Counted from the first letter of the stretch, positions 2,927 to 27,703 are shown. The stretch is 64,000 nt of DNA from Escherichia coli (GCF_003991155.1 NZ_CP031293.1); one strand, 5' to 3'. Numbers and translations: made by a program. The notes: generated from the letters alone by a model not told the origin.

Positions 2927-3444
2927 GTACATCATCAATCACCTGTTCTTCGCGGTAATGACGTAAACGGTTAATGACATAAAAAGTAACCATCTCAACA
3001 AACTCTTCCAGCCCTGTTTCGCGGAAATTCAATGAAGAAATCACTGTTTCCACATAGGTGAGAAAAGCGTTATTGGTCCGGTATACCTGCGAAGCTACAA
3101 AGCAATAAGGCAACAACGGCAGGTAATGCTGCTCAAAAAAGCGTTTACTGATCCCAACGTTCAATATGCGCGTGGCACCAAACTCATAAAAACTTTGATG
3201 GTGCGAACCTAACGGAATAAAAACAAAATCGCCCCGTTCCAGTAACACGCGCTTACCGTTAATCTCCTGGAAATAACGCCCGGTTAATACCAGAGTAAAT
3301 TCATAATAGTCGTGCTGATGCAGTCCGCTGATACTCTCAGTTTTGTTATAGATAAACACATGGAAATTTTTGCCATTAAACAACTGCTGTTCTCGGGCGG
3401 TGGCAATTTCCGGCGCGTTAATCACTGGCTGCATCATCGACTCC

Positions 3445-3795
3445 TTATGCCTTCAGTTTTTCATGAAGCTCAATTAATTCAGTAATCAGTTCACGCGCAA
3501 GCATGGACGTCATTAAATGATCCTGAGCGTGGACCAGCACCAGACTCACTTTCATCTTACCTTCGCCCGCATCGCCTTCAATCAGTTTCGTCTGTACCAG
3601 ATGCGCTTCATTCAATGCCATCCGTGACTGATCCATCATGGCTTTTGCTGCGGCAAAATCGCCCTGCTTCGCCTGTTTCAGTGCCGCATACGCCAGGCTG
3701 CGCGCTTGTCCGGAGTTGATGATAAGCCCCATCACCACTTCTTCCAGCTCTTCAGCTTCTGTTTGCGTATCGGGAATGTTATCGAGATCCATCAT
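3445..3795 (-). CDS. chbA: PTS chitobiose-specific EIIA component
   Basis: 116-aa ORF, lactose/cellobiose-family IIA; position between chbR and chbC. Confidence 0.9.
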
Positions 3796-3845
3796 ACATC
3801 GTTCCTCTCTTTTCTTACCGGCACGATTACCCGTACCGGCATCGA

Positions 3846-5204
3846 TTAAAATTTCAGGGCGTTAGCGATATCTTCTTCGCTCTCTTCTTTATCAATCGCG
3901 TTTTGTGCTTTGTTAGCGACCACAACAAAGGGCAGATAAATTAACGTTGCGATACCAAGGTTGAAGAGTGCAACCAGCAATGCGGCGACGCTACCGTTGG
4001 TGTTAAAGAAGGCTCCCAGACCGGTTGGCATGGTCCACGGTGCAATATTGGTCACCGGAGGAATAATGCCCATGTAGTACGCTGCCAGGGTGATTGCCGC
4101 CAGAATCGGTTGTACCAGTACAAACGGGATAAACATCACCGGGTTCATGATAATTGGCAGACCAAACAGAATCGGTTCGTTAATCTGGAAGATGCCGGAC
4201 GGCAGCGCCAGTTTTGCCACCTGACGATAATCAGCACGGCGAGAGGCGATAAAGATAGCCAGGATCAGACCTAAAGTCGCACCACTGCCCCCAAGGAAAA
4301 TAAAGGAGTCCAGCATCGGCTTGGCCCAGATATGGAAGGTCTTACCGGCTGCCAGCGCCGCTTCGACGGAACCATATTGCTGATAGGTCGCGATATTTTC
4401 CAGCGCCCACGGCGTCATAATGCCGTTGTCCAGTGCGGTCAGCGCCAGCGCACCATGAATACCGAAGAACCAGAGCAGTGGAACAAAGATCACATAGGCC
4501 CAGCCCACCACGCTACCCAACGATGCCAGTGGGGTTGAGATGGTATCCATAATGATCTGATGGAAGTTGGTGCCCCAGGTATTCAACGCCCAGGCAATAA
4601 TCCCCATCACGGAAAGAATAATAAAGCCGGGAATTAAAGCCGAGAAGGAACGCGATACTGAAGCAGGTACGCTATCGGGCAATTTAATGACCCAATTGCG
4701 GCGGACAATAAAGGTAAACATTTCTGCCACCACCAGGCCAATAATAATCCCGGAGATGATATTCGCCCCACCTAACCAGTTTGCGCCAACCGCATAGGCC
4801 TCACCGACACTATATGGGGTGACGGTCATAAATGCTGCAACGGATAACAACCCAGCCGCCAGCGCATCGACTTTACGCTCTTCTGCCAGCGCCATGCCAA
4901 TAAAGAACGGTGCCATTAAAGACATTATCCCTAATGTTCCGTTATATACGTTGCCGCCAATACCTTTCAGACCATTAAGTGTTTCAATGGTTGAGGCATC
5001 CAGGCGAATACCTAAGGAATAAAAAAACGACCCCTCCCCAAAGCTTAGAAAAACGTTGTTAATTAATACAAACATGGCCCCCGCAAGGGTTAACGGCATT
5101 AAGCGAATAAAGCCATTTTTGATTGCATTAACGTGTGGCTGCTTTCCTATTTTAACTGCAAAAGGGAGGAGTACCTTTTCAAGCGATGCAATAACATTAC
5201 TCAT
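3846..5204 (-). CDS. chbC: PTS chitobiose-specific EIIC permease
   Basis: 452-aa polytopic membrane protein, PTS EIIC lactose/cellobiose family. Confidence 0.9.
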
Positions 5205-23455: not shown

Positions 23456-24763
23456 ATGAAACGTGTTTCTCAAATGACCGCGCTGGCAATGGCTTTAGGG
23501 CTGGCTTGCGCTTCTTCGTGGGCCGCTGAACTGGCGAAGCCTCTTACACTTGACCAGCTTCAACAACAAAATGGCAAAGCGATTGATACTCGCCCCAGCG
23601 CGTTTTATAACGGCTGGCCACAAACCTTAAATGGCCCTTCCGGTCATGAACCTGCCGCCTTAAACCTCTCTGCTAGCTGGCTCGACAAAATGAGCACCGA
23701 ACAGCTCAACGAGTGGATCAAGCAACATAACCTGAAAGCCGATGCCCCGGTGGCGCTGTACGGTAATGACAAAGATGTCGATGCCGTCAAAACGCGTCTG
23801 CAAAAAGCAGGTTTTACGCATATCTCCATCCTGAGTGACGCGCTAAGCGAACCTTCCCGTCTGCAAAAACTGCCGCACTTTGAGCAGCTGGTTTATCCGC
23901 AATGGCTGCATGACCTGCAACAAGGTAAAGAGGTTACGGCGAAACCTGCCGGTGACTGGAAAGTCATTGAAGCGGCCTGGGGCGCTCCTAAGCTTTACCT
24001 TATCAGCCATATTCCCGGCGCTGACTACATCGACACCAACGAAGTGGAAAGCGAACCGCTGTGGAACAAAGTTTCTGATGAACAACTGAAAGCGATGCTG
24101 GCAAAACACGGCATTCGCCATGACACCACGGTCATTCTGTACGGGCGTGACGTATACGCTGCAGCGCGTGTGGCGCAAATTATGCTTTATGCCGGCGTGA
24201 AAGATGTGCGCCTGCTGGACGGAGGCTGGCAAACCTGGTCCGACGCGGGTCTGCCCGTTGAGCGCGGTACGCCACCGAAAGTGAAAGCGGAACCGGATTT
24301 CGGCGTGAAGATCCCGGCACAACCGCAACTGATGCTTGATATGGAACAAGCGCGTGGACTGCTGCATCGCCAGGATGCATCGCTGGTGAGTATTCGTTCG
24401 TGGCCGGAGTTTATCGGTACGACCAGTGGTTACAGCTATATTAAACCAAAAGGTGAAATAGCCGGAGCACGTTGGGGACACGCTGGTAGCGACTCGACGC
24501 ATATGGAAGATTTCCATAACCCGGATGGCACCATGCGTAGCGCCGATGATATTACCGCTATGTGGAAAGCATGGAATATCAAGCCAGATCAGCAAGTTTC
24601 ATTCTACTGCGGCACCGGCTGGCGCGCGTCCGAAACCTTTATGTACGCACGCGCAATGGGCTGGAATAACGTCTCCGTTTACGACGGCGGCTGGTACGAA
24701 TGGAGCAGCGATCCAAAAAATCCGGTAGCAACCGGTGAACGCGGCCCGGACAGCAGCAAATAA
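23456..24763 (+). CDS. ynjE: thiosulfate sulfurtransferase (multi-rhodanese-domain, periplasmic)
   Basis: Start at MKRVSQMTALAMALG (signal peptide), 435 aa. Confidence 0.85.
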   Translation: MKRVSQMTALAMALGLACASSWAAELAKPLTLDQLQQQNGKAIDTRPSAFYNGWPQTLNGPSGHEPAALNLSASWLDKMSTEQLNEWIKQHNLKADAPVALYGNDKDVDAVKTRLQKAGFTHISILSDALSEPSRLQKLPHFEQLVYPQWLHDLQQGKEVTAKPAGDWKVIEAAWGAPKLYLISHIPGADYIDTNEVESEPLWNKVSDEQLKAMLAKHGIRHDTTVILYGRDVYAAARVAQIMLYAGVKDVRLLDGGWQTWSDAGLPVERGTPPKVKAEPDFGVKIPAQPQLMLDMEQARGLLHRQDASLVSIRSWPEFIGTTSGYSYIKPKGEIAGARWGHAGSDSTHMEDFHNPDGTMRSADDITAMWKAWNIKPDQQVSFYCGTGWRASETFMYARAMGWNNVSVYDGGWYEWSSDPKNPVATGERGPDSSK

Positions 24764-24771
24764 CATTGCAA

Positions 24772-25398
24772 TTACTGACGCTGGAGCGACTTCAGCGTCA
24801 GATACCCACTCCACACCCGCGTAAAGGTCGTCATCCAGCACAACGCACCAAATACCCACGCAAACCACGGAAAACAGGCCGGAAAGAGGCAACTCAGAAC
24901 AAACAGCAAAATCGTCTCGCTGCCTTCGGTTAACCCGCCCAGATAATAAAACGATTTATGCGCATAACCAGGATTATCAATCTGATGTTTCGCCGCCAGC
25001 GCAGCAAAAGCGAGAAAACTGCTGCCCGTGCCGATAAACGCAAACAGCAGCCAGCCGCCTGCCAGCGCATTTTGCTCCGGTGCAGCAAGAATAAAACCAA
25101 ACGGCACCAGCGCGTAAAAGAGAAAATCGAGAGAAATATCGAGAAAGCCGCCCGCGTCGGTAAGCCCTCTGCGCCGCGCCAGCGCACCGTCCAGACCATC
25201 AAGCAGCCTGTTCAACAAAATGGCGACTAGCGCCGCCAGATACCAGCCCAGCGCCAGAAAAGGCAGTGCCAGCACGCCGATGGCAAATCCCACTAATGTT
25301 AAACCATCTGGCGTAATGCCCGGTTTATCAAGAACCCGCACGCACTGATGCAACAACGGTTTAATCCGGGGATGAAGATGGCGGTCTAGCACAGGCAC
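24772..25398 (-). CDS. ynjF: CDP-alcohol phosphatidyltransferase family membrane protein
   Basis: DG-x2-AR-x8-G-x3-D-x3-D-like motif (LDGLDGALARRRGLTDAGG); exact start uncertain (ATG 25398 or GTG 25392). Confidence 0.8.
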   Translation of the reverse strand: MPVLDRHLHPRIKPLLHQCVRVLDKPGITPDGLTLVGFAIGVLALPFLALGWYLAALVAILLNRLLDGLDGALARRRGLTDAGGFLDISLDFLFYALVPFGFILAAPEQNALAGGWLLFAFIGTGSSFLAFAALAAKHQIDNPGYAHKSFYYLGGLTEGSETILLFVLSCLFPACFPWFAWVFGALCWMTTFTRVWSGYLTLKSLQRQ

Positions 25399-25478
25399 TC
25401 CTTAAATATAAAGCCTTTCTGATTGAGCAACAGTGCGGATATTATGGCATTTTTCGCTTATCTGCCCGTGTGTAATTT

Positions 25479-25886
25479 ATGAAAATGATTGAAGTTGTTG
25501 CCGCCATCATCGAACGTGATGGCAAAATTTTACTCGCGCAACGCCCCGCCCATAGCGATCAGGCGGGATTATGGGAGTTTGCCGGTGGTAAAGTCGAGCC
25601 GGATGAAAACCAGCGGCAGGCGCTGGTGCGTGAGTTACGCGAAGAACTGGGCATCGAAGCAGCTGTGGGTGAATATGTTGCCAGCCATCAGCGAGAAGTT
25701 TCGGGGCGGATTATCCATCTTCATGCCTGGCACGTACCCGACTTCCACGGGACGTTACAGGCACATGAACATCAGGCGCTGGTCTGGTGCTCACCTGAAG
25801 AGGCGCTGCAATATCCGCTGGCCCCTGCTGACATTCCACTATTAGAGGCATTTATGGCTTTACGCGCCGCCAGACCAGCGGATTAG
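25479..25886 (+). CDS. nudG: Nudix CTP/dCTP pyrophosphohydrolase
   Basis: 135-aa ORF with Nudix box GGKVEPDENQRQALVRELREELGI. Confidence 0.9.
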   Translation: MKMIEVVAAIIERDGKILLAQRPAHSDQAGLWEFAGGKVEPDENQRQALVRELREELGIEAAVGEYVASHQREVSGRIIHLHAWHVPDFHGTLQAHEHQALVWCSPEEALQYPLAPADIPLLEAFMALRAARPAD

Positions 25887-26124
25887 TGCTAAGGGTTTTG
25901 TCATCACGCTGGCATTGCAGCAGTATTCCCTCGGCTTTAATTACCGCTCCTTCAGAATAATTTTTATCCTGATAAACGCAGCACTGAGTACAGGGCTGCG
26001 CTGACTGCCCGCCTGAACTGAACACTTCTGGCGGTACGTTTACCTCCACGTCCGGATGATAATGCGGGTTAGCCAGTGCAATTAATGGAAATGCTAATAC
26101 TACGGCGAACAATGCTCGACTCAC
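25852..26124 (-). CDS. ynjH: DUF1496 secreted protein
   Basis: 90-aa ORF with signal peptide; 3' end overlaps nudG 3' end. Confidence 0.75.
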   Translation of the reverse strand: MSRALFAVVLAFPLIALANPHYHPDVEVNVPPEVFSSGGQSAQPCTQCCVYQDKNYSEGAVIKAEGILLQCQRDDKTLSTNPLVWRRVKP

Positions 26125-26359
26125 AGGGAACTCCTTAACGTTATTGTCTCTGCTACTAATAACGGTAGCCGGGCGGCATAACTTTAGCGTCTGAGTTATC
26201 GCATTTGGTTATGAGATTACTCTCGTTATTAATTTGCTTTCCTGGGTCATTTTTTTCTTGCTTACCGTCACATTCTTGATGGTATAGTCGAAAACTGCAA
26301 AAGCACATGACATAAACAACATAAGCACAATCGTATTAATATATAAGGGTTTTATATCT

Positions 26360-27703
26360 ATGGATCAGACATATTCTCTGGAGTCATTCCTCAACCATGT
26401 CCAAAAGCGCGACCCGAATCAAACCGAGTTCGCGCAAGCCGTTCGTGAAGTAATGACCACACTCTGGCCTTTTCTTGAACAAAATCCAAAATATCGCCAG
26501 ATGTCATTACTGGAGCGTCTGGTTGAACCGGAGCGCGTGATCCAGTTTCGCGTGGTATGGGTTGATGATCGCAACCAGGTACAGGTCAACCGTGCATGGC
26601 GTGTGCAGTTCAGCTCTGCCATCGGCCCGTACAAAGGCGGTATGCGCTTCCATCCGTCAGTTAACCTTTCCATTCTCAAATTCCTCGGCTTCGAACAAAC
26701 CTTCAAAAATGCCCTGACTACTCTGCCGATGGGCGGTGGTAAAGGCGGCAGCGATTTCGATCCGAAAGGAAAAAGCGAAGGTGAAGTGATGCGTTTTTGC
26801 CAGGCGCTGATGACTGAACTGTATCGCCACCTGGGCGCGGATACCGACGTTCCGGCAGGTGATATCGGGGTTGGTGGTCGTGAAGTCGGCTTTATGGCGG
26901 GGATGATGAAAAAGCTCTCCAACAATACCGCCTGCGTCTTCACCGGTAAGGGCCTTTCATTTGGCGGCAGTCTTATTCGCCCGGAAGCTACCGGCTACGG
27001 TCTGGTTTATTTCACAGAAGCAATGCTAAAACGCCACGGTATGGGTTTTGAAGGAATGCGCGTTTCCGTTTCTGGCTCCGGCAACGTCGCCCAGTACGCT
27101 ATCGAAAAAGCGATGGAATTTGGTGCTCGTGTGATCACTGCGTCAGACTCCAGTGGCACTGTAGTTGATGAAAGCGGATTCACGAAAGAGAAACTGGCGC
27201 GTCTTATCGAAATCAAAGCCAGCCGCGATGGTCGAGTGGCAGATTACGCCAAAGAATTTGGTCTGGTCTATCTCGAAGGCCAACAGCCGTGGTCTGTACC
27301 GGTTGATATCGCCCTGCCTTGCGCCACCCAGAACGAACTGGATGTTGACGCCGCGCATCAGCTTATCGCCAATGGCGTTAAAGCCGTCGCCGAAGGGGCA
27401 AATATGCCGACCACCATCGAAGCGACTGAACTGTTCCAGCAGGCAGGCGTACTGTTTGCACCGGGTAAAGCGGCTAATGCTGGCGGTGTAGCAACATCGG
27501 GCCTGGAAATGGCGCAAAACGCTGCGCGCCTGGGCTGGAAAGCCGAGAAAGTTGACGCACGTTTGCATCACATCATGCTGGATATCCACCATGCCTGTGT
27601 TGAGCATGGTGGTGAAGGTGAGCAAACCAACTACGTACAGGGCGCGAATATTGCCGGTTTTGTGAAGGTTGCCGATGCGATGTTAAGCCAGGGCGTGATT
27701 TAA
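26360..27703 (+). CDS. gdhA: NADP-specific glutamate dehydrogenase
   Basis: 447-aa ORF; GGGKGG active-site region, Glu/Leu/Phe/Val dehydrogenase family. Confidence 0.95.
   Translation: MDQTYSLESFLNHVQKRDPNQTEFAQAVREVMTTLWPFLEQNPKYRQMSLLERLVEPERVIQFRVVWVDDRNQVQVNRAWRVQFSSAIGPYKGGMRFHPSVNLSILKFLGFEQTFKNALTTLPMGGGKGGSDFDPKGKSEGEVMRFCQALMTELYRHLGADTDVPAGDIGVGGREVGFMAGMMKKLSNNTACVFTGKGLSFGGSLIRPEATGYGLVYFTEAMLKRHGMGFEGMRVSVSGSGNVAQYAIEKAMEFGARVITASDSSGTVVDESGFTKEKLARLIEIKASRDGRVADYAKEFGLVYLEGQQPWSVPVDIALPCATQNELDVDAAHQLIANGVKAVAEGANMPTTIEATELFQQAGVLFAPGKAANAGGVATSGLEMAQNAARLGWKAEKVDARLHHIMLDIHHACVEHGGEGEQTNYVQGANIAGFVKVADAMLSQGVI

Follow-up and report, generated by a model that had tools for sequence, protein, structure and literature searches.

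Noncontiguous operons, reportedly described by Saenz-Lahoya and colleagues in 2019, and bidirectional intrinsic terminators shared by convergent genes, reportedly mapped by Ju and colleagues in 2019 with SEnd-seq, are two of the arrangements with which the tail-to-tail gene pair nudG and ynjH of Escherichia coli can be compared. The closest class is that of convergent overlapping pairs, in which two real genes on opposite strands have their 3′ ends in common (Rogozin et al. 2002; PMC2174442; PMC2478687). About 58 convergent overlaps have been counted in E. coli, and an intrinsic terminator is predicted for just 20% of the genes that take part in them. Only in the convergent orientation are long overlaps frequently genuine, and the phase (123:132) is the commonest among convergent overlaps of at least 5 nt. 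The nudG–ynjH pair resembles this class in its phase (123:132), in having no predicted intrinsic terminator, and in its occurrence in many genomes. It differs in its origin, which looks like a net deletion of the spacer and the NudG tail rather than a point mutation of a stop codon, and in its conservation, which is family-wide with zero indels, whereas most possibly real convergent overlaps are kept only in very close species.

Excludons are likewise adjacent opposed genes with overlapping transcripts (Sesto et al. 2013; PMC7154746; PMC12288877), and the pair itself appears in the E. coli list. In classical excludons the overlap results from long UTRs, whereas in nudG–ynjH the coding sequences (CDS) themselves overlap, which makes the overlap of the transcripts obligatory. 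The hallmark of an excludon is mutually exclusive expression by interference and RNase III, and nudG–ynjH is a candidate by virtue of its transcript overlap. As in noncontiguous operons, a transcript of nudG and gdhA spans ynjH on the opposite strand; unlike in those operons, this transcript comes from a single entry of one dataset, the gdhA promoter is dominant, and the arrangement is not in the published E. coli list (PMC12288877). Pairs with bidirectional terminators are also convergent genes with a tiny spacer or none (bioRxiv 10.1101/2022.10.23.513370), but nudG–ynjH differs from them in having no hairpin flanked by A- and U-tracts. Earlier work had annotated the pair, used it as an illustration, and named it as a candidate excludon, so the finding is not new, and nudG–ynjH is an ordinary member of the convergent-overlap class. 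Our analysis adds the family-wide conservation with zero indels, an asymmetric constraint in which ynjH appears to own the overlap, and a NudG length that is set by a synonymous site of ynjH.

The nudG–ynjH Locus

The window analyzed here is a stretch of 64,000 nucleotides of E. coli DNA (GCF_003991155.1, NZ_CP031293.1), and positions are counted from its first letter. The gene order is ynjE→ ←ynjF nudG→ ←ynjH gdhA→, and strand alternation extends over six consecutive genes (ynjE, ynjF, nudG, ynjH, gdhA, and topB). The neighboring genes ynjE (+ strand, ending at 24763) and ynjF (− strand, ending at 24772) form another convergent pair, with 8 bp between their stops, that is also among the convergent excludons of ExcludonFinder (PMC12288877). 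The two genes under study, the segment they share, and the next stop codon in the nudG frame are the following:

25479–25886, + strand: nudG CDS, TAG stop at 25884–25886, 135 aa (ORF list and RefSeq annotation)
25852–26124, − strand: ynjH CDS, GTG start at 26124, TAA stop at 25854–25852, 90 aa (ORF list and RefSeq annotation)
25852–25886, both strands: convergent coding overlap of 35 bp, encoding YnjH residues 80–90 (TNPLVWRRVKP) and NudG residues 126–135 (MALRAARPAD)
25887–25892, + strand: back-up nudG stop (TGC TAA), a position used (as TAA or TGA) in 31 of 60 other Enterobacteriaceae loci, with a 41-bp overlap

The earlier note, made from the sequence of the window, had placed the nudG stop at 25886 and the ynjH stop at 25852 on the opposite strand, and the sequence, the ORF list, and the RefSeq annotation all give the same positions. 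The convergent 35-bp coding overlap that it described, both stop codons included, is borne out by the sequence and the ORF list. The overlap comprises NudG codons 126–135 with the stop and YnjH codons 80 (in part) to 90 with the stop, phased so that nudG position 1 lies opposite ynjH position 1, position 2 opposite position 3, and position 3 opposite position 2. The chance of meeting no stop over 10 codons in antisense to ynjH is (61/64)^10, or approximately 0.62. Base for base, the overlap in the window equals that of K-12. The RefSeq coordinates of both genes agree with these positions in strain 2016C-3878, which is 100% identical here, and RefSeq annotates the same overlap in K-12 MG1655 (nudG 1841490–1841897, ynjH 1841863–1842135). 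Among the complete E. coli genomes, 5414 of 5426 carry the locus.

Both nudG and ynjH are genuine protein-coding genes. NudG is a NUDIX hydrolase, a CTP/5-hydroxy-CTP pyrophosphohydrolase that clears oxidized nucleotides and degrades (p)ppGpp; it matches the Pfam NUDIX family over aa 4–125 (E 1e-22) and the NMR structure 2RRK in the PDB (E 2e-85), and its residues 1–135 lie within the solved structure. YnjH has a hydrophobic leader at its N-terminus and AAGGAG just upstream of its GTG start, and it matches DUF1496 over aa 33–89 (E 2e-24), up to profile position 53 of 53. The “overlapping genes nudG and ynjH” also serve to illustrate strand-specific Ribo-seq in Figure 1 of GWIPS-viz 2018. Considered as a convergent overlapping protein-coding pair, the two are thus real genes on opposite strands with shared 3′ coding ends, and their overlap recurs in other genomes.

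Conservation Across Enterobacterales and Origin of the Overlap

The comparison set consisted of 80 loci obtained from a NudG scan, with one genome per species. A ynjH homologue was convergent with and directly downstream of nudG in 77 of these 80 Enterobacterales loci. In every Enterobacteriaceae genus sampled, including Escherichia, Citrobacter, Salmonella, Kosakonia, Kluyvera, Enterobacter, Buttiauxella, Cedecea, Mangrovibacter, Atlantibacter, Yokenella, Phytobacter, and Trabulsiella, the position of the ynjH stop within nudG does not vary (codon 125/126). The distance from the NudG PADxPLL motif to the YnjH Trp85 codon was invariably 25 nt among the Enterobacteriaceae loci (62 of 62), and no indel was seen at the junction in any of them. 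Outside the family, this distance was 34 nt in Erwinia, 48–57 nt in Yersinia, and 63–199 nt in Serratia, genera in which the stops are 4–100 bp apart or the overlap is just 8–12 bp. Among the other Enterobacteriaceae loci, the overlap measured 41 bp in 31 of 60 and 35 bp in 20 of 60, with lengths of 26, 38, and 44 bp in three loci each (26 bp, for example, in L014 and L020) and a range of 23–44 bp over all Enterobacteriaceae loci sampled. Given the close or shallow arrangement in Erwinia, Yersinia, and Serratia, the tail-to-tail pairing appears to be old, at the level of Enterobacterales, and the deep overlap derived in Enterobacteriaceae. On these comparisons, the pairing of nudG and ynjH is older than the Enterobacteriaceae. 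The direction of the change, a deletion in Enterobacteriaceae as opposed to an insertion elsewhere, was assigned by parsimony with three outgroup genera.

A few individual loci deserve mention in their own right. In isolate F829 (NZ_OY754443.1, locus 3053–4525, L083), an IS5-like ISKpn26 element lies inside ynjH a few bases past the nudG stop, at about window position 25894, so that ynjH is split and nudG is whole at 408 nt; this was the single case of such an interruption among the sampled matches of approximately 5400 genomes. The metagenome-assembled genome “Citrobacter sp. HRGM_Genome_0066” carries two nudG–ynjH loci (L002 and L013), one of them 99% identical to E. coli, which suggests a chimeric or contaminated bin. 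A record named “Chryseobacterium sp. 18061” (L039) holds a typical enterobacterial nudG–ynjH–gdhA locus, suggesting mislabeling or contamination. On the − strand, a 46-aa ORF at 25711–25851, which runs antisense to nudG and opens, in the frame of ynjH, with an ATG right behind the ynjH TAA, was considered as a re-initiation product; it is probably a chance ORF, since its ATG (column 25850) is present in only 6 of 61 loci.

The explanation that we favor, with a confidence somewhat above even, is an ancient tail-to-tail overlap of unrelated genes that arose by compaction and was then locked in by coding constraint, the antisense overlap being chiefly a by-product. According to this proposal, genome compaction may have brought the unrelated convergent genes nudG and ynjH together, and in the ancestor of the Enterobacteriaceae a net loss of approximately 10–50 nt would have taken the original NudG tail, its stop, and the spacer. 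The nudG frame would then have run from the AFM residues (codons 124–126) into the antisense of the conserved DUF1496 C-terminus, to end at the first stop codon met in the antisense ynjH frame. Since every base between the conserved cores encodes the conserved YnjH end, the end of the last helix of NudG, or both, indels would from then on be excluded and the junction frozen. The loss of intrinsic terminators proper to each gene and the obligatory overlap of the mRNAs would be consequences of this junction; termination would probably depend on Rho acting on untranslated antisense RNA or on polymerase collision, and any regulation would be modest and conditional on FliA-driven transcription of ynjH.

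Constraint on the Two Reading Frames

Column entropy was averaged per codon phase over 61 loci, and the flanks were taken as 150 nt of single-gene sequence on each side of the overlap:

nudG-only flank: peak at nudG position 3 (1.45 bits), with 0.65 at position 1 and 0.51 at position 2
Overlap: peak at ynjH position 3, which is nudG position 2 (0.87 bits), with 0.26 where the two first positions are opposed and 0.16 at nudG position 3
ynjH-only flank: peak at ynjH position 3 (1.40 bits)

In these 61 loci, the ynjH stop marks the exact point at which the coding periodicity passes to the ynjH frame. The residues encoded within the overlap, YnjH 80–89 (TNPLVWRRVK), are the best-conserved part of the protein, with 94% pairwise amino-acid identity versus 73% for YnjH 56–79, and the same motif is kept as GTNPLIWxRLK in Yersiniaceae, where the two genes overlap slightly or not at all. 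The corresponding part of NudG lies past the NUDIX domain, which ends at residue 125, and past the alignments with PDB homologues, which end at about 120–127. NudG 127–132 showed a pairwise amino-acid identity of 0.58 with radical second-position replacements (L128S, R129P/H, A130D/V, and R132T/I/K), and the protein ended at five different positions across the loci. The end point was related to a single column. The nudG TAG at +35 is available only when YnjH Thr80 is encoded by ACT, and otherwise NudG extends to the TAA or TGA at +41; column 25885 was A in 21 of 61 loci, which equals the count of 35-bp overlaps, and the length of NudG (+35 or +41) therefore depends on synonymous codon choice at YnjH Thr80. 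Only over the first few bases of the overlap are both proteins truly constrained: NudG F125 and M/I126 are conserved there, opposite the ynjH stop and the wobble position of YnjH Pro90. This wobble position, the second base in codon 126 of NudG, is near-invariant (60 of 61 loci). Selection in the overlap thus appears to act on YnjH, and the last nine or so residues of NudG would be a tolerated, non-conserved appendage. As far as the alignments go, the comparative data are wholly explained by coding constraint on ynjH alone.

Termination and Read-Through at the Junction

According to the earlier note, the overlap leaves no room for separate terminators. This proved correct, since any terminator of either gene must sit within the partner gene when the CDS overlap, and neither a standard scan nor a lenient scan for a hairpin with a T-tract detected an intrinsic-terminator-like site near the junction on either strand. 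Under the lenient criteria, the + strand was also free of terminator-like sites from the nudG stop to the gdhA ATG. A shared bidirectional intrinsic terminator was considered and discarded, as the junction contains no hairpin with an A-tract and a U-tract, and such a terminator cannot be the mechanism here. The RNA downstream of each stop folded no better than shuffled sequences (z of −0.30 and −0.34, with −0.34 for the + strand path), a search of Rfam returned 0 matches at E ≤ 1 for 25200–26500 on both strands, and the Term-seq supplements of Adams et al. 2021 contain no entry for nudG or ynjH. The features that bear on the ends and starts of transcripts around the junction are the following:

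25609–25627, − strand: weak hairpin with a dG of −10 kcal/mol and the tail UUUCAUCC, approximately 225 nt downstream of the ynjH stop, within the Nudix-box codons of nudG
25449, + strand: nudG transcription start site (TSS), from K-12 TSS 1841460 with an offset of 1816011 (SMRT-Cappable-seq, Supplementary Data 2)
25434, − strand: ynjF TSS, from K-12 TSS 1841445, divergent from the nudG TSS
25887–26359, + strand: nudG read-through path, antisense to the whole of ynjH and into gdhA, corresponding to the published transcript b1759|b1761

The hairpin at 25627–25609 is preceded by sequence rich in C and poor in G (25734 down to 25600) and is a candidate end for ynjH transcripts. It is probably not a dedicated terminator, since it is unconserved over the 80 loci; in K-12-like sequence it lacks a U-tract. 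The TSSs of ynjF and nudG are 15 bp apart and constitute back-to-back divergent promoters (25434–25449). A ynjH transcript on the − strand that read through nudG would enter ynjF in sense.

Because the CDS overlap, the transcripts of the two genes share at least 35 nt, and their overlap is documented in the literature. From TSS 1841460, SMRT-Cappable-seq recorded transcripts of nudG alone and of a novel operon composed of nudG and gdhA (b1759|b1761), with no termination site entered for the nudG TSS. ExcludonFinder (NAR 2025, PMC12288877) places nudG–ynjH in a set of 165 convergent excludons detected in at least 50% of 58 MG1655 transcriptomes. The earlier note had taken transcript ends without read-through into the partner gene as the result that would count against it, and the published record is the opposite, given that the nudG–gdhA transcript crosses all of ynjH in antisense and that the pair has an excludon entry. 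Regulation through such an overlap, which the earlier note had raised as possible mutual antisense regulation, is plausible.

The Sigma-28 Promoter of ynjH

The gene ynjH is a target of FliA (sigma-28), with an approximately 14-fold dependence in E. coli, and belongs to the same regulon in Salmonella, where it is STM1300; strains deleted for ynjH showed no change in motility. Its promoter was placed in the window by homology to RegulonDB ynjHp, as quoted in the supplement of PMC4183435, and is backed in K-12 by FliA ChIP and RNA-seq:

26152–26186, − strand: predicted ynjH FliA promoter, with the −35 element TAAAGTTA at 26186–26179, the −10 element ACCGTTAT at 26166–26159, and the TSS at 26152

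In this strain, the motif matches TAAAGTTT-N11-GCCGATAA at 12 of 16 positions and is situated 34 nt upstream of the ynjH start. When 78 loci were scanned, a FliA-like motif was found 23–43 nt upstream of ynjH in 27 of them versus 2% of shuffles; it was present in Escherichia, Citrobacter, Salmonella, Kluyvera, and some Kosakonia and Enterobacter, whereas none was detected in Buttiauxella, Serratia, or Yersinia.

Three SNPs (26158, 26174, and 26179) that distinguish this strain from K-12 all lie within this promoter. Compared with K-12 on the − strand, they correspond to a −35 element TAAAGTTA versus the consensus TAAAGTTT, one change in the spacer, and a −10 element CCGTTATT versus CCGTTATC, suggesting that FliA-dependent expression of ynjH might differ in this strain. 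Additionally, two sigma-28-like motifs overlap on opposite strands at 26135–26186. The ynjH motif given in Table 2 of Fitzgerald et al. (TAACGTTATTGTCTCTGCTACTGATAAC) maps to the + strand at 26135–26162, pointing toward gdhA, and the RegulonDB ynjHp motif maps to the − strand at 26186–26159; the supplement of Fitzgerald et al. itself mentions a non-overlapping promoter sequence.

Alternative Explanations of the Overlap

The most serious competitor to compaction followed by lock-in is a functional convergent excludon, an explanation that we regard as possible and rather unlikely. It would have FliA-driven ynjH transcription running antisense through nudG, and nudG transcription running antisense through ynjH and its promoter, with mutually exclusive expression brought about by transcriptional interference and by RNase III cutting the paired RNAs, and with the terminator-free overlap kept by selection. 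The inclusion of the pair among the 165 convergent excludons, the lack of a terminator between or near the two genes, the published read-through of nudG over ynjH, the place of ynjH in the FliA regulons of E. coli and Salmonella with a promoter motif in several genera, and the retention of the nudG–ynjH pairing throughout Enterobacterales all agree with it. Two considerations weigh against the by-product view. The family-wide overlap and the conserved FliA promoter of ynjH fit a selected antisense unit as well, and excludon pairs as a class are more syntenic and more rarely co-expressed in single cells, which points to a function in some of them.

In contrast, the literature consulted contained no report of reciprocal expression specific to this pair, and validation with p19 of double-stranded RNA failed or was uninformative for convergent excludons generally. 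The supplementary tables of the FliA regulon contain ynjH and not nudG, which is a weak argument as these tables list targets only, and a ynjH deletion leaves motility unaffected. Buttiauxella, moreover, has no FliA motif and yet keeps the same frozen overlap, which indicates that the overlap persists without that promoter, and the conservation of the overlap is wholly accounted for by the coding of YnjH. We infer that the antisense overlap is mainly a tolerated by-product, although comparative sequence data cannot separate an overlap frozen by coding constraint from one kept for regulation.

An improbable alternative is a noncontiguous operon in which the nudG promoter would serve to transcribe nudG and gdhA together, across the oppositely oriented ynjH embedded between them, so that the expression of nudG and gdhA would be coupled and set against that of ynjH. 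SMRT-Cappable-seq enters the novel operon b1759|b1761 from TSS 1841460 in Supplementary Data 2 and 3, the + strand between nudG and gdhA offers no terminator-like site, and the layout fits the noncontiguous-operon class of ExcludonFinder (PMC12288877). However, the pair is absent from the three E. coli noncontiguous operons that ExcludonFinder reports (PMC12288877), and gdhA is served by a strong TSS of its own (1842307, 368 reads) with an entry for a transcription termination site (TTS), whereas the nudG TSS is listed with neither a TTS nor a read count, so the nudG–gdhA read-through is probably a minor species. In addition, Buttiauxella, Cedecea, Serratia, and Yersinia keep nudG and ynjH without gdhA adjoining ynjH. 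We know of no functional link between NudG and glutamate dehydrogenase.

A more elaborate proposal, which we consider a long shot, would combine the two as a sigma-28-conditional excludon or noncontiguous operon. Class-3 flagellar transcription of ynjH would run antisense through nudG and into ynjF, lowering NudG, and read-through from nudG in cells that are not motile would shut off ynjH and contribute to gdhA transcription.

Dual-coding selection, in which the C-terminal tail of NudG would be functional, both frames would be under purifying selection, and the overlap would be kept to encode both, is very improbable. The conservation of F125, M/I126, and the Pro90 wobble does amount to double constraint over the first few bases, and ynjH third positions are less variable inside the overlap (0.87 bits) than outside it (1.40 bits), but part of this lower entropy is due to Trp and two-fold degenerate codons. 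Past codon 126, NudG tolerates radical changes (R→P, A→D, L→S, and R→T/I), terminates at any of five positions, and is beyond both the NUDIX domain and the aligned end of its PDB homologues. Finally, an annotation artefact, whereby one ORF would be no gene or one stop would be mis-called and no coding overlap would exist, is hardly credible and can be set aside: long convergent overlaps are at times 3′-extension misannotations according to the literature, but stops are not open to mis-calling as starts are, the strong Pfam matches of both proteins reach into or beside the overlap, coding periodicity holds in both frames up to their stops, NudG is covered by a solved structure over residues 1–135, Ribo-seq signal is displayed on both strands in GWIPS-viz Fig. 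1, and the overlap is kept in more than 60 species.

Implications for Genetic Studies and for the Evolution of the Locus

In practical terms, deleting or tagging either 3′ end changes the partner gene. For example, a published primer for the ynjH::thyA deletion, CTTTACGCGCCGCCAGACCAGCGG, maps to 25858–25881, within the overlap (PMC4183435). Because this primer is inside the overlap, the cassette junction replaces the last codon and the stop of NudG. The standard Keio design reportedly leaves just the final 21 nt of a deleted ORF in place. Under that design, a nudG deletion would take the stop and the last codons of the highly conserved YnjH C-terminus, and a ynjH deletion would take the last codons and the stop of NudG. 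Phenotypes of single mutants of nudG or ynjH could thus be confounded.

If the excludon explanation were proven, the locus would be a simple conserved example of sigma-28-conditional antisense control, and if the combined sigma-28-conditional proposal were true, motility, alarmone and nucleotide sanitation, and nitrogen assimilation would be linked through transcriptional geometry alone. Under the explanation that we favor, compaction followed by lock-in, nudG and ynjH illustrate that a convergent overlap can stay fixed throughout a family simply because the conserved domain end of one partner fills it.
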